Shown: piece after piece, positions 416 to 37,911 of the stretch
Layout of the letters: every line of letters starts with the position of its first letter
Position numbering within the stretch: the first letter of the stretch is position 1
Origin: Escherichia virus TH55
Length of the DNA: 64,000 bases
Strand: one strand, 5' to 3'
Sequence record: MT446421.1
Notes under the pieces: model-generated
Told to the model about the DNA's origin: nothing
The model's input: only the letters and a program-made list of their open reading frames with translations
The model's database searches: none
Translations under genes and position numbers: made by a program

Positions 416-651
416 TCTTTCACCTTCATCATTTTAGCAATAACACTATGGACAGCCTGGATTCGTTTGTCGAACTCAGACCCTTCAAGGCCCTTTTCAG
501 TACTCAGGGCACCAATCATCACAAACAGCAATCCAAATGGGATAACCAGGATTAAAAGGCACACAATAAACAGGACAAATGTAATATTGGCCAGGATATC
601 AGAAACAGCATTACGAAATTTATTCATATTTACCCTTAATTGATTAACCAA
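412..651 (-). CDS. small membrane protein (79 aa)
   Basis: ORF with long hydrophobic stretch (ITFVLFIVCLLILVIPFGLLFVMIGAL); co-oriented with flanking genes. Confidence 0.45.
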   Translation of the reverse strand: MVNQLRVNMNKFRNAVSDILANITFVLFIVCLLILVIPFGLLFVMIGALSTEKGLEGSEFDKRIQAVHSVIAKMMKVKE

Positions 652-741
652 GCATTGATAAGCACTAAACTATACTGCGAATAAAATTCTGGACCAAAAT
701 GAAAAATCATATCATTTATAGTATCCATAATATAATTAAAT

Positions 742-1212
742 TTAATCATGTTTCCACACCCCATCGGTATTTGACCAAAGTCGCTGATTATCTGACCCTC
801 GCCACAGTTTTTTGGTCGGAAGATTTTTCTCATACTTCCCATCAATAATAACATCAACATATTTAAGCATTTCTAGTTGTTTAATATCTTCAAACTTATA
901 TCCTGTCCACATCCAAATGCTTTTATTTGGATAAAGATTTTTAACAGTTTGAACCACAGAGTGAATAACATCTCGGTTATCAGGATAGAGAGGGTCTCCT
1001 CCAGTTATAGTTAATCCTTCTATATAATCATTATTCAAACATTCAATTAATTGTTCTAGTGTTTCACCAGTGAATGGAACCCCATTTCTAGCATTCCATG
1101 TTGATTTATTATAACACCCTTCACATTTATGCAAACAACCTGTAACGAAAAGAACGACCCTGCATCCAGGGCCATTCACAAAATCACAAGGATAAAATCT
1201 ATCATAATTCAT
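742..1212 (-). CDS. nrdG: anaerobic ribonucleotide reductase activating protein (radical SAM)
   Basis: 156 aa; radical-SAM Cys cluster CLHKCEGC; same length and position (immediately downstream of nrdD) as T4 NrdG; ATGA overlap with nrdD. Confidence 0.9.
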   Translation of the reverse strand: MNYDRFYPCDFVNGPGCRVVLFVTGCLHKCEGCYNKSTWNARNGVPFTGETLEQLIECLNNDYIEGLTITGGDPLYPDNRDVIHSVVQTVKNLYPNKSIWMWTGYKFEDIKQLEMLKYVDVIIDGKYEKNLPTKKLWRGSDNQRLWSNTDGVWKHD

Positions 1213-3026
1213 TGGTGTTTAACCCTATGCATGATTTCTTTATTTTTGCCGAGATTAAATCCACGTTCGTTCGGATTTCCCAAATAACCGCAAGTTCTTC
1301 TTATTGTGTTCATCTTTTTAGGGTCAGTTTCTCCACAAATAGAACAAACAAATCCGTTTTCAGTAGGAGTCATTTCATGGGTACTTCCACACGTAAAACA
1401 TTTATCTACTGGCATATTAACACCAAAATAATCTAAATGTTGCGCGGCATAATCCCATACAGCCTCAAGACCTTTTAAGTTATTTTTCATATCAGGAAGT
1501 TCAACATAAGAAATGTGACCACCTGTCGCAATGAAATGATATGGGGCTTCGCGAGAAATCTTTTCAAACGGAGTAATATTTTCTTCTACTGAAACGTGGA
1601 AACTGTTAGTGTACCATCCTTTATCGGTAACATCTTTTACACTTCCATATTTTTCAGTATCAAGTTTACAGAAGCGATAACAAAGGTTTTCAGCAGGTGT
1701 AGAATACAAACTAAAAGCAAAACCGGTTCTTTCAGTCCACTGCTTAAGACGAGCATTCATTTTAGTTAAAATTTCTTGCCCAATATCACGACCGGCAAGA
1801 ATATTCAATTCGTGAATACCAATGTATCCCAAAGACACTGAACTTCTACCGTTTTTAAATAACTCAATTATATCATCATCAGGTTTAAGACGAACCCCGA
1901 ATGCACCTTCTTGGTAAAGAATAGGAGCAACAGTCGCTTTAACTCCTTTTAAAGAACTAATTCTACACATCAAAGCTTCAAAACACAAATCCATTCGCTC
2001 ATTGAACAATTCGATAAATTTCTGTTCATTGAACTGTGTTCCAATATAAGAATCTAACGCAATGCGAGGAAGATTCAGTGTTACAACACCAAGATTATTA
2101 CGTCCATCAAGAATTTCATTACCAGTCGAATCTTTCCATACGCCCAAGAAACTACGGCAACCCATTGGAGAAACAGGAATAGATGAACCAGTGATAGCTT
2201 TATTGTTCTTAGCTGAAATAATATCAGGATACATTCTTTTGCTTGCACACTCTAGAGCAAGCTGCTTAATATCATAGTTCGGGTCGTCTTTATAAAGATT
2301 AACACCTTCTTCAACGAACATAACAAGTTTAGGGAAAATAGGAGTTATCCCATCGCGACCAAGACCTTTGATACGATTTTTCAGAATTGCTTTCTGAATC
2401 ATTCGTTCAGTCCAGTCAGTTCCCGTGCCAAACGTAATTGTCACAAAAGGCGTTTGCCCATTTGAACTAAAGAGCGTATTTACTTCATATTCATAAGCTT
2501 GGAATGCATCGTATACGTCTTTTTCTGTTTTAGATTGGGCATAATTCAATGCATCAGTGATTTGCCATTTTTCTGCATCTTCAATATGTTTTGCGTATGT
2601 ACGTTTAACATAAGGAGAAAATACTTTGTCTACATTAGCAAAAGTCGTTCCGCCATATTGGTGAGAAGCAACCTGTGCAGTAATTTGTGCCATAATTGCA
2701 GTAGCAACACCGATTGATTTAGGAGTTTCAATCTGTGCATTACCAAGCTTAAATCCGTTCTCAAGCATTCCTTTTAAATCTACTAAACAGCAATTAGTAA
2801 ATGGAAGAGCAGGGGAATAATCAATATCATGGAAATGAATAATTCCACTTTCATGTGCTTTCATAATAAAAGACGCGACCATATTTTTGGCAATGTGTTT
2901 AGATACAATACCAGCCATAAGGTCCCGTTGAGTTGGAAAAACACGAGAATCTTTATTAGCATTCTCGTTTAAAAGGTCTTTATTAGTTTTATGAATCAAT
3001 CCTTCAATTTCGTTTTCAATTGTCAT
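1209..3026 (-). CDS. nrdD: anaerobic ribonucleoside-triphosphate reductase large subunit
   Basis: 605 aa; C-terminal glycyl-radical motif RTCGYLG and zinc ribbon CFTCG...CSICG; length equals T4 NrdD; ORF uninterrupted. Confidence 0.93.
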   Translation of the reverse strand: MTIENEIEGLIHKTNKDLLNENANKDSRVFPTQRDLMAGIVSKHIAKNMVASFIMKAHESGIIHFHDIDYSPALPFTNCCLVDLKGMLENGFKLGNAQIETPKSIGVATAIMAQITAQVASHQYGGTTFANVDKVFSPYVKRTYAKHIEDAEKWQITDALNYAQSKTEKDVYDAFQAYEYEVNTLFSSNGQTPFVTITFGTGTDWTERMIQKAILKNRIKGLGRDGITPIFPKLVMFVEEGVNLYKDDPNYDIKQLALECASKRMYPDIISAKNNKAITGSSIPVSPMGCRSFLGVWKDSTGNEILDGRNNLGVVTLNLPRIALDSYIGTQFNEQKFIELFNERMDLCFEALMCRISSLKGVKATVAPILYQEGAFGVRLKPDDDIIELFKNGRSSVSLGYIGIHELNILAGRDIGQEILTKMNARLKQWTERTGFAFSLYSTPAENLCYRFCKLDTEKYGSVKDVTDKGWYTNSFHVSVEENITPFEKISREAPYHFIATGGHISYVELPDMKNNLKGLEAVWDYAAQHLDYFGVNMPVDKCFTCGSTHEMTPTENGFVCSICGETDPKKMNTIRRTCGYLGNPNERGFNLGKNKEIMHRVKHQ

Positions 3027-9622: not shown

Positions 9623-9658
9623 TTTATTCTCCAGTATTTGGTAACTCAGTATGGGAAC

Positions 9659-10206: not shown

Positions 10207-10255
10207 TTTATTCTCCGTTTGTTCGTTTGTTTATTTGGTAACTCAGTATGGAATC

Positions 10256-10284
10256 ATTATGCATCATGACCATCTGGTTGTACA
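10256..10284 (-). promoter_or_regulatory. T4-type early promoter
   Basis: Minus strand: -35 TGTACA, 17 nt, -10 CATAAT; follows terminator 10299-10320. Confidence 0.6.
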
Positions 10285-10298
10285 CTACTTTTTAAAAT

Positions 10299-10320
10299 AA
10301 AAAAGGACCCCGAAGGGTCC
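10299..10320 (-). terminator. rho-independent terminator
   Basis: Minus-strand RNA GGACCC-UUCG-GGGUCC followed by U6; directly after stop of 10321-10563. Confidence 0.65.
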
Positions 10321-13748: not shown

Positions 13749-13776
13749 TGTATTCTCCTCAGTAGTTGATGGGATA

Positions 13777-17378: not shown

Positions 17379-17837
17379 TTAGATATAAATCACTTTTGTG
17401 CTAATTTTTCCTTCCAGACGATTAGAGTTAACAAACGCCATACGACAACACATGGTCGGAGACTTCCCAGGAATAGCGGGGTTAACTGTCATTCCTAACC
17501 ATAGGTTCTTGTCCGTGATTTCCAGACGAAGTGGACGGTAGTTCACATTCGGGTCAATTTGTGCTTCAACTTCCGGGAGTGGTTTCATCTCCAAGAATTC
17601 AACGATTTCTTTTACATGTGGTGTGATTTTTCCAAACAAGTCAAAAACATATTGTTCATCAATTTCACGCTGGATTGCACGGTCCAACAGGTGTGGACTG
17701 TACTTAATGAAGAATGCCTCAAGGCCTGCTTCTTTACAAGCCTTGTTGATAGCATTATTAATTTTGAGGAACTCCGTTTCAAAAATGCGACGAAGTTTAT
17801 TGCGGCGAATGTAAACACTTGAATCGATAGTAGTCAT
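17379..17837 (-). CDS. regB: endoribonuclease RegB (cleaves GGAG in early mRNAs)
   Basis: From M20 (MTTIDSS), about 152 aa; close match to remembered T4 RegB (VYIRRNKLRR...LLDRAIQREIDE...RPLRLEITDKNLWLG); promoter lies inside the longer ORF-track frame. Confidence 0.88.
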   Translation of the reverse strand: MTTIDSSVYIRRNKLRRIFETEFLKINNAINKACKEAGLEAFFIKYSPHLLDRAIQREIDEQYVFDLFGKITPHVKEIVEFLEMKPLPEVEAQIDPNVNYRPLRLEITDKNLWLGMTVNPAIPGKSPTMCCRMAFVNSNRLEGKISTKVIYI

Positions 17838-17864
17838 GATTATCTCCTTTTGTTTGATGGGATA

Positions 17865-17893
17865 ATCATAACTCATTTCAATCTGCTTGTACA
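17865..17893 (-). promoter_or_regulatory. T4-type early promoter (regB)
   Basis: Minus strand: -35 TGTACA, 17 nt, -10 TATGAT; 28 nt upstream of regB ATG. Confidence 0.55.
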
Positions 17894-19666: not shown

Positions 19667-19966
19667 TTAGAAAGAACCAGAACCTTTAATTGTGTTCTGG
19701 CGACCTTTATTTTCTAATTCAGAATGGTCGATTTCGTATGCTTGTGCTACACCAAAGGCCTTTTTAACTTTAGCTAAAGAGCCTTTAGATGTGACAATAT
19801 TAAAAGTATTGCCTTTAGTAAAATCAACCAAATCCACTTGTACACCCTGTTTACCGAGGCTTGCTACAATAGCATCAACATATTGTTGGTCTAAATTGCC
19901 CTGGACTCCGATTTGAAATGCTTTGGGAGCTTTGGCTTCAGTAATAAATTCTTGATAAGTTTTCAT
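19667..19966 (-). CDS. internal-protein-like capsid-targeted protein (about 99 aa)
   Basis: Start at M14 gives N-terminus MKTYQEFITEA, the capsid targeting sequence of T4 internal proteins; early promoter 19997-20026 upstream. Confidence 0.6.
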   Translation of the reverse strand: MKTYQEFITEAKAPKAFQIGVQGNLDQQYVDAIVASLGKQGVQVDLVDFTKGNTFNIVTSKGSLAKVKKAFGVAQAYEIDHSELENKGRQNTIKGSGSF

Positions 19967-19996
19967 TTTATATTCCATTGTTTGGTTAATAAAATC

Positions 19997-28423: not shown

Positions 28424-28867
28424 TTAAATTTCAAATTCTTTGCGGAAGTTGGAAGCATAAGACTGAACTGATGCTTTGTTGAACCCAAACTCACGCACAA
28501 TCATATCAATAACAGCTCTGCGAGCAGCACCATTAGACATATTAACAGTTTTGAACATATCATAGCATAAATCTTTGTTGCTCATACCGGAGCGTTTAGG
28601 TGCCTTACGTTCAGCTTTTGGTTCAGCTTTAGGAGTAGGTTTAACTTCTGGTTTAACCTGTCCATCATTCAGACCTTTAAAAATTTTACCTGCCAGAGTT
28701 GCCAGTTTAGCAGCTTCGCCACGAGTGATACCAAATACTGCCGGGTTAAATGAAATACCTTCAGCTGTCAGACGTTTGAAGAACATACGGGCTGCGGATT
28801 GTGCTTCAGCTTCAGAAGAGTTGTTTAATGCCAGTTTAACGTACTTAACCAGTTTTGAAGTTTTCAT
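28424..28867 (-). CDS. hypothetical protein, paralogue pair member 1 (about 147 aa)
   Basis: Start at M18 (MKTSKL) downstream of promoter 28910-28938; C-terminal block NGAARRAVIDMIVREFGFNKASVQSYASNFRKEF shared with 28951-29376. Confidence 0.5.
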   Translation of the reverse strand: MKTSKLVKYVKLALNNSSEAEAQSAARMFFKRLTAEGISFNPAVFGITRGEAAKLATLAGKIFKGLNDGQVKPEVKPTPKAEPKAERKAPKRSGMSNKDLCYDMFKTVNMSNGAARRAVIDMIVREFGFNKASVQSYASNFRKEFEI

Positions 28868-28909
28868 TTTATTATCCCGTTTGTTTATTTGGTAACTCAG
28901 TATGGGATA

Positions 28910-28938
28910 ATTATACATTATCCCACCTGGAAGTAAAA
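28910..28938 (-). promoter_or_regulatory. T4-type early promoter-like element
   Basis: Minus strand: -35 TTTTAC, 17 nt, -10 TATAAT plus conserved leader. Confidence 0.45.
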
Positions 28939-28950
28939 CACTTTTCTCAA

Positions 28951-29376
28951 TTATTTTTGAGCTTTGCGGAAGTTGGAAGCATATGACTGAACAACAGTCT
29001 TTTTGATATCATGGGTGTTAACCAGAACATCAATCAGAGCGCGACGAGCTGCACCATCTGCCATATCAATTTCTGCAAATGCCTGGAAGCAAATGTCACG
29101 AGCATTACCAGATTTTGACTGGATTTTTTCTTCTTTAACTTCTTCAATTGGGAATTCAATCATTTCAGCTTGGATTAATTCAATGATAGATTCTTTTGAC
29201 TGTTTGGTGTTTACCTTCAGTTCAGAATTAAGGGACTTGGCGATGGCAACAATCTGGGTTGAAGTCAGATGAATAAGTGCATCTTCACGAATGCAGATTT
29301 CACATACTTCATCGGCAACCATTTTGTTGGTGATGCGGGTAACAGAGAATGCAGAGGTCAGGGTCAGGAAGTTCAT
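28951..29376 (-). CDS. hypothetical protein, paralogue pair member 2 (about 141 aa)
   Basis: Start at M28 downstream of promoter 29428-29456; C-terminal DGAARRALIDVLVNTHDIKKTVVQSYASNFRKAQ. Confidence 0.5.
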   Translation of the reverse strand: MNFLTLTSAFSVTRITNKMVADEVCEICIREDALIHLTSTQIVAIAKSLNSELKVNTKQSKESIIELIQAEMIEFPIEEVKEEKIQSKSGNARDICFQAFAEIDMADGAARRALIDVLVNTHDIKKTVVQSYASNFRKAQK

Positions 29377-29427
29377 TTTATTTCTCCAAAGTTTTGTTTG
29401 ATTCAGTGTGTAACTCAGTATGGAATC

Positions 29428-29456
29428 ATTATGCATCCAGTCAATTCGGATGTACA
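29428..29456 (-). promoter_or_regulatory. T4-type early promoter
   Basis: Minus strand: -35 TGTACA, 17 nt, -10 CATAAT; follows terminator 29495-29516. Confidence 0.6.
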
Positions 29457-30545: not shown

Positions 30546-30575
30546 TTTGTTTTCCATTATTAGGGTTGTTGTTAA

Positions 30576-30583
30576 TATTTATA
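30576..30583 (-). promoter_or_regulatory. late promoter TATAAATA
   Basis: Exact late consensus on minus strand just upstream of CTS-like gene 30162-30545. Confidence 0.5.
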
Positions 30584-30590
30584 TTCCATA

Positions 30591-30650
30591 GTACCGGATG
30601 CACCATCCGCTCGGATTTCTCATACTACCGGACGCACCGTCCGCTCTGGA
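30591..30650. repeat. tandem pair of 34-bp units each forming a 6-bp hairpin
   Basis: TACCGGATGCACCATCCGCTCGGA / TACCGGACGCACCGTCCGCTCTGGA; stems CGGATG-CAC-CATCCG and CGGACG-CAC-CGTCCG differ by a compensatory T-A to C-G change. Confidence 0.55.
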
Positions 30651-30781
30651 AAAACTCCGTAAAAGGGTGCGCCGTTTCAGCTGTGATATAAGGGGGCATC
30701 AACAAATCGTAAAGATTTATTAATGCCAGTCCTTAAACAGGGAACTTCAGTCCGACGACTTACCGGTAGCGACCCGGTTTC

Positions 30782-31036: not shown

Positions 31037-31113
31037 TGGTCGGGGTGGTGGGATTCTAACCCACAACCTACGGTTTAGAAGACCGTTGCTCTATACAATT
31101 GAGCTACACCCCG
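31037..31113 (-). tRNA. tRNA-Arg (anticodon UCU)
   Basis: Hand-folded cloverleaf: 7-bp acceptor CGGGGTG/CACCCCG, D-stem GCTC/GAGC, anticodon stem ACGGT/ACCGT with loop CUUCUAA, T-stem GTGGG/CCCAC, encoded CCA; T-loop is UUAGAAU (A at conserved C56 position). Confidence 0.75.
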
Positions 31114-31189
31114 GGTGGCCCCATCCGGACTTGAACCGGAAACCTGCCAGTTATGAGCCGGATGCTCTAACCAATTGAGCTACAGGGCC
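31114..31189 (-). tRNA. tRNA with CAU anticodon (Met, or Ile if lysidine-modified)
   Basis: Hand-folded: acceptor GGCCCTG/TGGGGCC (two G-U pairs), D-stem GCTC/GAGC, anticodon loop CUCAUAA, T-arm TCCGG-TTCAAGT-CCGGA; abuts tRNA-Arg with no spacer. Confidence 0.75.
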
Positions 31190-32495: not shown

Positions 32496-32634
32496 TTAAA
32501 AATGCAACTACTAAAGAGATTATATTCTCAGAAGTTGAAAGCATATTCAACATAAAGCCAGCAAACATGCTAAAACCAAAAACGGTAACAGCAACAAGGG
32601 CAGTAACATTTCTAATTAATTCACAACGTTTCAT
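32449..32634 (-). CDS. small membrane protein (61 aa)
   Basis: Two hydrophobic segments; early promoter 32663-32691 and SD GAGGAG. Confidence 0.45.
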   Translation of the reverse strand: MKRCELIRNVTALVAVTVFGFSMFAGFMLNMLSTSENIISLVVAFLIGSISFVMDKISKGE

Positions 32635-32662
32635 TTTATTCTCCTCAGTAGTTGATGGGATA

Positions 32663-35981: not shown

Positions 35982-36656
35982 TTATTTTATTAATGTGTTA
36001 AGTCTTAGCTTAGTCATAAACGGATAACGTTCCAACATTGGCTTTACCCAGTATCGAGGATGCAATTCCTTTTTATATGCTAAGACCAACTCTCGAGCTT
36101 GCTCGACGGTATCAACTCCGAAGTTTTTACACATTTCTTGCCTATCTTTTTCCCACCGGCGCTTTCTCAATTCATCCTGAATCTCTTTATTTTTAAAATG
36201 ACCATTATTGCGAGAATGTTTTGTACCCTTGGTTGGACTGTAATGTCTTCCTTTGACAAACCCATCCGGAATATTTTCCCATGGAAATAGTTTTATCGAT
36301 TTGACACCATTATTAAAGTAAACTTTACCGGTTTGACTTTTAGAAATATTGTCAGCGTGTCTACGTCTTAACCAACCAAATAATTTATTATTGCGTTTCA
36401 AATACTTGCTTGACTGGCACATGGATGTAGCAGCAAAACTTAAACCTGGATTTGTAGGATATATTTTAACCAATAGTTGATGGGCTACATAATGTTCCTC
36501 AGGAGTCAAATCGACCAGATTATCTGGGTCATTTGAACCACCCATACATTTCGGAATGATGTGATGAGATTCTTTATATGAAATCAGGACCCTGTTACGG
36601 GCCCTTTCAATTAACGATGAATATATAAACTGATAATTCAAAGTGAATTTCTCCAT
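35982..36656 (-). CDS. free-standing HNH homing endonuclease
   Basis: 224 aa; HNH core [29 protein letters not shown]; inserted between genes 3 and 2. Confidence 0.75.
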
Positions 36657-37465: not shown

Positions 37466-37911
37466 CCTTTCCATCCTAATTTTTTCAGGCCGTTTTCGGT
37501 TAGAATGCGAAATGTAATACCCATTTTATCTGCGGTAGCTTGTGCAGCTTTCCACTTATCCCTGTTCACAGAATAAGTGTACATTTCGTTTATATAACGT
37601 TTCTTACTGGCTGCTGTATTATTTACAGGAATTTTTGGGGGCTGTGTTTCTTTGAATGGTTTTATTTCAATAAAAAATTGCTGGCCGGTATCAAATTTAC
37701 ACCATATATCCATATAGTAACGGCGCTTTTTGCCATCAGCATTGCTAAAATATGGAATAACAACAGTCTCAGAACCCCATTGAACAACATTGGGGTGAGT
37801 GTCGAGCCACTTGAACATATATGCCTCCCAACTCGACCTGTACTGTATTTTCTTCCAATCACCTTTATATTTTTCTAGATTTGTTGGTTTAAACTTCCCG
37901 GAGTACGCCAT
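37462..37911 (-). CDS. 4: head completion protein gp4
   Basis: About 149 aa from MAYSGKFKP (T4 gp4-like N-terminus and length). Confidence 0.75.

Follow-up and report, generated by a model that had tools for sequence, protein, structure and literature searches.

Probable Promoter-Early-Stem-Loop Cassettes at Gene Junctions in the Early Region of a VR7-Like Coliphage

Cassettes of the Early Region

The repeated units that occupy gene junctions in the early region of Escherichia virus TH55 (sequence record MT446421.1) are, with a probability of about 0.78, early regulatory cassettes of a T4-like phage belonging to the promoter-early-stem-loop (PeSL) type. They were studied in one stretch of 64,000 nucleotides (the window), which includes the unit at 10207-10320; this unit lies, as proposed in the original prediction, at a gene junction; it coincides exactly with one intergenic gap and has its features on the minus strand. 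The observations that carry this reading are the sequence anatomy of the cassettes, the covariation of their hairpin arms, the reuse of their modules, the match to the consensus site of the phage endoribonuclease RegB, and the coincidence with insertions and deletions (indels) between related phages.

The 5-kb stretch around 10207-10320 is 100% identical to Escherichia phage UPEC07 (MW250787, Tevenvirinae, Gaprivervirus) and 90–96% identical to VR7-like phages, and the reverse complement of window positions 1-34000 corresponds to MW250787 positions 104539-138538. According to the curated annotation of VR7, the window from 1 to about 38600 is a T4-type early region, all on the minus strand, with the gene order nrdH-nrdD-49-nrdC.x-mobD.x-rI-tk-vs-regB-ip-denV-e-tRNA-ip-57B-1-3-2-4, and the remainder carries late structural genes. 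The cassettes lie in its nrdC-tk-regB-ip-e-tRNA hyperplastic region.

For the detection of cassettes all intergenic gaps were listed and the phage-specific promoter form was then sought in front of a Shine-Dalgarno (SD) sequence and ATG. This search gave 16 cassettes in the window (C1 to C16), each of which fills one intergenic gap of the minus strand within 7031-33931; on the same strand 34001-64000 gave no further cassette, nor did the late genes. Over the 115 kb of UPEC07 that were examined the number of cassettes is 35, and the tests of hairpin arms were made on 29 promoters. Read 5' to 3' along the minus strand, a cassette is composed of a stem-loop, an A-rich UP-like tract (for example, aaaaagtag), an early promoter, a short leader belonging to one of two related families (type 1 and type 2), a GGAG SD in A-rich context, and the ATG. 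The promoter form, T[G/T]TACA, 17 bp, [T/C]ATAAT, matches that of T4-type early promoters and would be served by the host sigma-70 RNA polymerase.

PeSLs were defined in phages RB49 and phi1 and divided into five classes by the position of the stem-loop, the commonest having it between the promoter boxes or over the -10, with JS98 named in the same study only for its gene 43 locus (Arbiol et al. 2010, PMC2839356). Later they were extended to T4/PST and KVP40/nt-1, the stem-loop there immediately preceding a TTTACW-N17-TAYWAT promoter (Comeau et al. 2014, PMC4122927). As the original prediction had it, the units of the window agree with these elements in every feature that can be read from sequence: they are intergenic and stand directly upstream of an open reading frame (ORF), with SD and start codon at their end (16 cassettes); a promoter matching the T4-early type (-35, about 17 bp, -10) follows an AT-rich tract; a stable stem-loop is located at the promoter (z <= -2 in 13 of the 16); and many copies stand before ORFans in the hyperplastic region and are associated with indels.

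The likeness to the RB49/phi1 elements (PMC2839356) extends to the intergenic composite of AT-rich tract, -35/N17/-10, stem-loop, SD, and ATG, to a stem-loop placed upstream, around the -35, between the boxes, or over the -10 with G-T pairs tolerated, and to the many copies before ORFans with indels between close relatives. In contrast to those elements, which belong to the genus Krischvirus and possess a near-perfect TTGACA and polyG/polyC stems, the present cassettes have a T4-type -35 (TGTACA/TTTACA) and mostly mixed-sequence stems (C6 is an exception), and they belong to Gaprivervirus, in which they are described from sequence. With the T4/PST elements (PMC4122927) they have in common the consensus TTTACW-N17-TAYWAT and the regions nrdC-tk and e-tRNA-ip, and the type 2 leader ATCAACTACTGAGGAGAATAAAATG is common to T4 and UPEC07; the stem-loops of T4/PST were, however, placed just upstream of the promoter, whereas here, and in T4 according to the present analysis, many enclose the -10, and the type 1 leader CCATACTGAGTTAC is essentially confined to Gaprivervirus. 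A further likeness is to the elements at T-even internal-protein loci, at which internal-protein genes are swapped, as far as these are cited in PMC2839356 (Repoila 1994). The cassettes are thus a known kind of element in a genus without an earlier catalogue; the literature search returned nothing on VR7 early promoters and no usable T4-type transcript-end maps.

In the mechanism that is proposed for the cassettes the hairpin would attenuate or cap transcripts coming from upstream, and a new immediate-early mRNA, translated at a high level, would be initiated at the cassette promoter for the downstream gene. RegB together with ribosomal protein S1 would then cut the GGAGAAUAAAA site and switch this mRNA off. 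The approximately 10 or more near-identical, co-oriented copies of 50–110 bp per genome may also act as homologous landing pads for the phage recombination system, in which case single genes would be gained, lost, or swapped at cassettes.

Predicted Terminators, Promoters, and Leaders

The cassette of 10207-10320 (C13, minus strand) begins with a predicted terminator at 10294-10320, in which the hairpin GGACCC-UUCG-GGGUCC (10320-10305) is followed by U6AUUUU (-13.8 kcal/mol, z = -3.7, 0 of 200 shuffles). It continues with a putative early promoter at 10256-10293, consisting of the tract aaaaagtag (10293-10285), the -35 TGTACA (10284-10279), a 17-nt spacer, and the -10 CATAAT (10261-10256), with a predicted +1 near the A at 10249; this promoter fits the T4-type PeSL consensus TTTACW-N17-TAYWAT (PMC4122927) except for the G at the second position of the -35. 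The type 1 leader at 10207-10255 consists of GATTCCATACTGAGTTACCAAATA and then CA-rich repeats, with the SD and RegB/S1-type site GGAGAATAAAA at 10216-10206 and the ATG at 10206-10204. The length of this leader varies by CA-rich units (aaataaacaaacgaacaaacGGAG in UPEC07, aaataaacaaacGGAG in the related phages P8 and RZ, and aaataaaactGGAG in VR7), which suggests slippage as the source of unit gain and loss in an untranslated leader.

All three junctions at which a terminator followed by an early promoter had been reported were recovered, with hairpins and T-tracts at 10322-10303, 13845-13818, and 29516-29500 (-13.8, -16.1, and -12.6 kcal/mol, respectively; 0 of 200 shuffles fold as well) and with the hexamers TGTACA-17-CATAAT (10284-10256), TTTACA-17-TACTAT (13805-13777), and TGTACA-17-CATAAT (29456-29428) after them. 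The distance of about 15 bp between terminator and promoter holds for two of them (9–14 nt from T-tract to -35), but it is about 38 nt at the third. The hairpins of these cassettes (C13, C12, and C4) are G+C-rich with a U-tract directly after them, as in intrinsic terminators, and a separate intrinsic terminator is present in only 3 of the 16 cassettes; the order of terminator and then promoter, correct for the cited junctions, is consequently the minority layout. The -10 lies in a hairpin loop in C1, C2, C3, C5, C9, C10, and C14 and more weakly in C15 and C16, and in C6 it is the -35 that is enclosed by a G-rich/C-rich hairpin. The place of the hairpin follows the length of the gap, gaps of 55–85 nt having embedded hairpins and gaps of at least 100 nt a separate terminator, a pattern suggesting that selection acts to have one stem-loop at each junction, which in a short gap is accommodated in the free positions of the promoter.

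The type 1 core CATACTGAGTTAC occurs in five copies, all on the minus strand, at 9641, 10238, 28361, 28892, and 29410. The near-identical 30-nt block that had been noted at five promoters was found to be exact at 10232 and 28355, to have 3 mismatches at 9635 and 28886, and to be partial in the fifth copy (29399-29428), which diverges after 24 common nucleotides; none of 100 shuffles gave any match. A second leader type is likewise present at the four sites where it had been seen, with the core ATCAACTAC at 13762, 20443, 32648, and 32957; two copies of the type 2 leader are exact (13755 and 32641) and the other two sites are diverged. In BLAST searches of sequenced phages with the whole cassette the type 1 family was found in 46 phage records, nearly all of Gaprivervirus, with 8–12 copies per genome, and in one Morganella phage record the matching stretch is labelled "promoter | terminator". 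Scanning of IMG/VR with the 14-mer CCATACTGAGTTAC was uninformative, since among the matches listed most were chance hits in unrelated contigs, and at the gathering threshold of Rfam only two tRNAs were detected, the cassettes matching no curated RNA family.

That the conserved block is protein-coding, representing an N-terminal extension of the downstream genes, would have undermined the cassette reading, and the chance of this is close to negligible. The idea arises from record MW250787, in which two coding sequences (CDS) start at an ATG inside the -10 region of the promoter (29436 and 28918), in frame with the gene, and the block therefore falls in CDS there. Three of the five copies are nevertheless intergenic even in this record, and in the other two GGAG/GGGA, AATAAA, and ATG follow 60 and 51 nt downstream of the annotated starts, placing the real starts at 29376 and 28867; short forms of both genes (426 and 444 nt) are annotated in VR7, RZ, and P8. 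The block also contains the -10 hexamer at the correct 17-bp spacing from the -35, and the proteins encoded downstream are unrelated except for one pair that is alike in the protein body. Both apparent overlaps are annotation errors, namely, over-extended start codons.

Gene duplication was considered as a source of the repeated block and rejected, because the genes behind near-identical cassettes are unrelated apart from this one pair (C4/C5, 44% identity). The eight cassette-driven genes that were tested contain no Pfam family and are ORFan-like.

Modular structure is evident when the 35 promoters are compared pair by pair. In 58 pairs identity over the module from the -10 to +24 amounts to at least 80%, and with a single exception these pairs have no more than 17–59% identity in the adjoining 46 upstream nucleotides, the -35 among them; for C6 and C13 the values are 100% for -10 and leader and 35% upstream. 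One and the same leader occurs joined to UUCG terminators, to the AUU-loop terminator, to the -35-loop hairpin, or to -10-loop hairpins, and by inspection the module of UUCG terminator, UP tract, and -35 is joined to both type 1 and type 2 leaders. In the type 1 cassettes with a -10 in the loop, CCATACTG of the leader is the 3' arm of the hairpin, with CAGTATGG in the spacer, and in terminator-type cassettes with a type 1 leader the 3' arm is kept and the 5' arm is gone, which is the remnant that a crossover in the loop or the -10 would be expected to leave. In T4 the type 2 leader is found almost letter for letter as TACCCTATCAACTACTGAGGAGAATAAAATG before trna.4. Two forces keep the cassettes alike: selection on the module of -10, leader, and RegB site, and recombination that reassorts this module with different upstream modules.

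Hairpins Embedded in Promoters

In the hairpins with the -10 in the loop one arm is located in the spacer between -35 and -10 and the other at or just after the -10. The arms differ among promoters and are yet complementary (ATGGGATA/TATCCCAT, GTGGGAC/GTCCCAC, GTGTAGG/CCTACAC, TGATAGGGT/ACCCTATCA, and GGTACAGGTT/AACCTGTACC), which constitutes covariation: over the 29 promoters matched arms form a mean of 6.55 pairs versus 5.13 for arms taken from different promoters, and none of 5000 permutations reached the observed value (p < 2e-4). When compared with shuffles in which the -10 was kept fixed, 14 of the 29 promoters fold with z < -2, and the embedded hairpins tested beat 200 shuffles. T4 has such hairpins too, that of the ipI promoter (-17.4 kcal/mol, z = -7.4) being one of them.

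Transcription from a sigma-70 promoter starts about 7 nt past the -10. The 5' arm is thus upstream of the start, which leaves only read-through RNA or DNA as the place where an embedded hairpin could form. Folding is more stable for the sense than for the antisense strand (Wilcoxon p = 0.027; all 14 strong cases), and in helices allowing transition mismatches 8 internal G.U were counted against 2 A.C (p = 0.055, suggestive only). In the orthologous cassettes of VR7, P8, and RZ the stem substitutions are mostly loop changes or changes of a Watson-Crick pair to G.U, with the exception of a VR7 change at C9 that gives a terminal A.C mismatch; at C8 the weak stem is not kept among the relatives and the upstream hairpin is kept. 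The strand bias and the G.U-compatible changes favour an RNA-level role on read-through transcripts over an operator or a symmetric cruciform. In experiments with PeSLs the stem-loop alone cut downstream lacZ expression as much as rrnB T1 (Arbiol et al., PMC2839356).

It is very improbable that the inverted repeats act as DNA, be it that a dimeric repressor binds them as operators and so turns early promoters off, or that endonuclease VII cuts them as cruciforms and thereby initiates recombination. Such a role could be considered in view of their centring on the -10, of the incompletely understood mechanism of T4 early-promoter shut-off (PMC3014915), and of gene 49 (endonuclease VII), which is encoded in the window. 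The sequences of the arms, however, vary by promoter, which excludes a single sequence-specific protein, and stems of 6–12 bp with loops of 7–14 nt are poor cruciform formers according to established DNA energetics. The greater stability of the sense strand and the preference of G.T over A.C are not expected of a symmetric duplex element either, and it is by arm diversity together with strand asymmetry that the operator and cruciform readings were rejected.

Predicted RegB Target Sites

The earlier statement that RegB is encoded here proved right: the regB gene at 17379-17876 on the minus strand matches PF10715 (E = 2.9e-72) and is annotated as RegB, an endoribonuclease cleaving GGAG in early mRNAs. 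The strong RegB/S1 site has the consensus GG*AGRAYARAA, and secondary structure protects it from cleavage (PMC3014915). Exact matches to GGAGRAYARAA in the window number four, and all of them are ribosome-binding sites (RBSs) of cassettes (C14 at 9622, C13 at 10206, C6 at 28337, and C3 at 32634), the expectation being 0.36 and none of 100 shuffles reaching four. Of 15 genes driven by cassettes 10 have GGAG at the RBS; among the remaining early-region genes it is 8 of 69 (Fisher p = 2.8e-5), and among late genes 3 of 20. The claim that GGAG stands in each leader is correct for the RBSs of eight of the nine cassettes cited, the cassette at 28868-28950 having GGGAT, and about one third of all cassette RBSs carry GAGGA or GGGAT in place of GGAG. 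In RNA initiated at the cassette promoter the predicted unpaired probability of the GGA in the RegB site is 0.84–0.94 for C13 and C14, 0.78 for C3, and 0.33 for C6; the SD of C13 is likewise predicted to be mostly unpaired (0.84) in RNA from its own promoter.

According to these data the proposal that the GGAG leaders are RegB targets is well supported at the sequence level, by the presence of regB and the four strong-consensus matches. The likeness to the RegB/S1 sites of T4 consists in GGAG in the SD of early genes, in the exact matches at four cassettes, and in the regB gene itself; the differences are that about a third of the UPEC07 cassette RBSs have no GGAG and that cleavage is here a prediction.

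Indels and Possible Exchange of Genes at Cassettes

Homologous regions of VR7, P8, and RZ were aligned with window positions 1-39000, and 28 distinct indel or replacement events were found within 1-34000, of which 13 end at most 15 nt from a cassette versus 2.4 expected by random placement (p < 5e-5). At C3 and C5 extra genes in the relatives have 31–56 nt of one and the same cassette on either side: in P8 and RZ a duplicated C3 encloses an additional internal-protein gene, and in VR7 and P8 a duplicated C5 encloses an additional gene. At C11 the 34-nt overlap of a VR7 indel lies not in the promoter but in the adjacent coding leader of an internal-protein gene (19937-19970), which indicates that the exchange repeat unit reaches into the gene. 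A common N-terminal coding leader, MKTYQEFI, is seen in the internal-protein genes at 19937-19970 and 32629-32659 (minus strand). Five nucleotides upstream of C9 VR7 carries an insertion of 649 nt, and RZ lacks the whole gene that separates C6 from C7. The C2 (32947-33002) and C8 (24512-24614) cassettes are conserved islands of about 100 nt; in VR7, P8, and RZ replacement or deletion has affected both flanking genes, and the C2 island is situated between variable internal-protein genes.

The C13 junction exists in three states. In UPEC07 there is the bare cassette; in VR7 an extra gene (ORF099c) with its own MotA-type promoter is inserted between the stop codon and the terminator; and in P8 and RZ the terminator and UP part is replaced by a reverse-oriented gene and a different terminator, the part from -35 to ATG being retained. 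Because of these three states the junction is a hotspot and the cassette is modular.

Several points weigh against the PeSL reading of the cassettes and their proposed role in shuffling. Under a stricter null, in which events may end at any gene junction (16 of 85, or 18.8%, carry a cassette), 14 of 44 ends fall at cassettes with p = 0.027, a modest enrichment of ends that are not independent; the suggested tie of cassettes to gene shuffling therefore stands in that indels cluster at them and is modest when measured against gene junctions. Several indels are found at cassette-free junctions or are homing-endonuclease insertions, and neither the VR7 gene ORF099c nor the reverse-oriented gene of P8 and RZ at C13 is flanked by two homologous cassettes, so that they are not accounted for by a simple crossover between cassettes. 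Conservation of the type 2 leader between UPEC07 and T4 shows that purifying selection and not recent copying alone maintains the likeness of leaders. The embedded hairpins are not called intrinsic terminators, because they have no U-tract. The generic sigma-70 consensus is not enriched in the window (67 found versus 59.7 expected from shuffles), and for this reason the promoter calls rely on the phage-specific consensus, position, and repetition. Finally, the activities ascribed to promoter, terminator, RegB, and recombination are deduced from the sequence and from work on other phages.

Part of these points would fit a purely regulatory origin of the repeats, in which strong early promoters with optimised leaders are held alike by purifying selection with no active role in shuffling, and the cassettes merely mark the edges of dispensable single-gene units in hyperplastic regions. 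The near identity of the type 2 leader and RBS in T4 and UPEC07 despite their deep divergence, the p value of only 0.027, the insertions at C13 that two homologous cassettes do not flank, and the many indels at junctions without cassettes speak for it. Extra genes in VR7, P8, and RZ are, however, flanked by 31–56 nt of cassette sequence (C3, C5, and the coding leader at C11), C2 and C8 persist while both neighbour genes are replaced, identical modules of -10 and leader are joined to unrelated upstream modules, and products of PeSL-to-PeSL recombination were sequenced in RB49 and phi1 (PMC2839356). Regulation without shuffling thus appears possible but rather unlikely, and cassettes of PeSL type, with both functions, are preferred.

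Predicted Sequestration of Ribosome-Binding Sites in Read-Through RNA

Another possible function of the embedded hairpins, which is put forward tentatively, is the discrimination of transcripts by origin and not attenuation. Read-through RNA would fold unlike RNA started at the cassette, and in a subset of promoters the 5' arm would be an anti-SD, so that translation of the gene, like its exposure to RegB, would be limited to RNA from its own early promoter. In read-through RNA the SD of C10 (denV) is predicted to be sequestered by an outer UCUCC/GGAGA pairing, that of C4 by pairing with UUUCUUCAAA upstream of the -35 (SD unpaired 0.01; 0 of 40 shuffles as low), and that of C16 is predicted to be sequestered as well.

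The denV promoters were collected from 34 distinct T4-like contigs, of which 32 were usable in the covariation test. In most contigs spacer or -10 sequence upstream of the predicted start is complementary to the SD and in some cases to the AUG too, and the arms covary by lineage (TCTCCTGTAG/CTACAGGAGA, TCTCCGTTTG/CAAACGGAGA, TCCTCCAAG/CTTGGAGGA, and ATGTCCTCC/GGAGGACAT): matched helices are of 8.9 bp versus 6.3 bp for mismatched partners (32 sequences, permutation p < 1e-4). The denV RBS would accordingly be hidden in read-through RNA and free in RNA from its own promoter. An SD predicted to be essentially fully paired in read-through RNA, with accessibility at or below that of 5% of shuffled upstreams, was found in 7 of the 35 UPEC07 promoters (including C4, C8, C10, and C16), and extreme SD pairing in 5 of 14 T4 promoters (denV, regB, nrdC.9, nrdC.10, and the promoter at record position 70695).

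This principle is established for the T4 late promoters of e, soc, 49, and I-TevI, and in the T4 review an RBS hairpin with an internal promoter is listed only for these late-promoter genes (PMC3014915). The proposed likeness is that the 5' arm pairing with SD or AUG is upstream of the start and only read-through RNA would be blocked (here in denV/C10, C4, C8, and C16 and in T4 denV, regB, nrdC.9, and nrdC.10). The difference is that the late promoter of those genes delays expression, whereas an early promoter would restrict translation to the immediate-early transcript, and this in a subset only.

Over all promoters, on the other hand, SD accessibility in read-through RNA is not below that with shuffled upstream sequence (0.39 versus 0.44 in UPEC07, p = 0.33; p = 0.71 in T4), and with swapped, mismatched upstream sequence UPEC07 gives no drop either (p = 0.99). 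An anti-SD upstream of the start in all early promoters was therefore rejected, the raw drop in accessibility having vanished against the shuffled and mismatched controls, and only the subset stands out. Moreover, C13 shows no sequestration (0.67), most -10-loop hairpins are clear of the SD, and the argument is built on folding predictions and assumed start sites. Thus, it is somewhat doubtful, though suggested by denV covariation, that early promoters with a hairpin arm upstream of the start may form a "transcript-origin switch", in which a sizeable subset (denV, regB, the nrdC.9/nrdC.10 type, C4, C8, and C16) would have the RBS hidden and would allow translation and RegB exposure only from the own immediate-early transcript.

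Other Cassettes and Neighbouring Features

Among the further type 1 cassettes (all cassettes being on the minus strand), C14 (9623-9690) has the -10 TATAAT in the loop of the hairpin GGUAUGGGGA/UUCCCAUAC and carries GGAGAATAAAA, and C6 (28338-28423), whose -10 and leader are identical to those of C13 in 30 of 30 positions, has the -35 TATACA in the loop of its G-rich/C-rich hairpin (-18.7 kcal/mol) and also GGAGAATAAAA. In C5 (28868-28950) the -10 is in the loop of GGUGGGAUA/UAUCCCAU, the SD is GGGAT with no GGAG, and the true ATG is at 28867. C4 (29377-29517) consists of the AUU-loop terminator (29516-29500), the promoter (29456-29428), and a type 1 leader diverging after 24 nt, with the true ATG at 29376.

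Type 2 leaders are found in C12 (13749-13848), where a UUCG-loop terminator and a TTTACA-17-TACTAT promoter precede the leader TATCCCATCAACTACTGAGGAG; in C3 (32635-32691), with the -10 in the loop of AUGGGAUA/UAUCCCAU and with GGAGAATAAAA; and in C2 (32947-33002), with the -10 in the loop of GAUGGGAUA/UAUCUCAUC, which includes one G.U pair. The denV promoter C10 (20432-20486) possesses an inner hairpin UGAUAGGGU/ACCCUAUCA around the -10, the outer UCUCC/GGAGA pairing, and a type 2-like leader.

The -10 TATTAT of C1 (33868-33931) lies in the loop of GUGUAGG/CCUACAC and the -10 CACAAT of C9 (23241-23299) in that of GUGGGAC/GUCCCAC. C8 (24512-24614) combines the upstream hairpin AUCACA-AGGA-UGUGAU with the promoter TGTACA-17-TATCAT; C16 (7031-7088) has the promoter TTTACT-17-TATAAT with a weak hairpin around the -10; and C15 (9035-9097) has a promoter-like TATAAT that is overlapped by the hairpin AUACCA-AGGA-UGGUAU. 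C11 (19979-20014), located before an internal-protein gene, has the promoter TGTACG-17-TATAAT and no significant hairpin. C7 (27960-28031) contains a MotA-box-type middle promoter, GTGCTTTA-N12-TAGTAT, with the hairpin GGGAACAU/AUGUUCCC over the -10 (as DNA, GGGAACAT/ATGTTCCC); this "PmSL"-like cassette is analogous to the "PmSL" elements of Vibrio phage nt-1.

Several observations concern the surrounding region. For window positions 1-34000 the UPEC07 record MW250787 contains many unreliable product names, such as eight "thioredoxin" genes, a 77-aa "major capsid protein", and a "portal vertex protein" on an e.2-like gene, whereas VR7 (NC_014792) has T4-based names. The genes nrdD and nrdG (628-3026, minus strand) are missing at the corresponding position in VR7. 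Two indels in the region of genes 2-4 (35985-36644 and 37472-37517) represent homing-endonuclease genes that are present or absent among relatives, a different route of gene gain and loss, independent of cassettes. A non-coding stretch of 224 nt at 30558-30781 (minus strand) adjoins two tRNA genes (31040-31189) and holds a sequence of about 27 nt (gagcggayggtgcrtccggtastatg) twice in tandem, each copy containing a short palindrome; it gave no Rfam match at the gathering threshold, and its placement recalls the neighbourhood of rnaC/rnaD in T4.

Conclusions

In summary, the cassettes map probable immediate-early transcription units in VR7-like therapeutic coliphages, correct mis-called start codons, and mark junctions of accessory-gene gain and loss, which makes them of use in annotation, in phage engineering, and in the reading of genome mosaicism. 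For phage engineering they may offer natural insertion sites with a built-in promoter, insulator, and off-switch. The PeSL idea is extended by them to another genus, and T-even phages including T4 also carry hairpins enclosing the -10. To a T4 specialist the cassettes as such will be correct and useful but unsurprising, and the newest thread is the predicted subset of early promoters that sequester the RBS, along with the broader idea that hairpins embedded in promoters may mark the origin of a transcript. If confirmed, this subset would be an early-promoter version of classic T4 translational control, an undescribed, T-even-wide early-gene counterpart of the logic of late promoter and RBS hairpin in e, soc, 49, and I-TevI, and it would explain the covarying spacer and discriminator sequences in these promoters.

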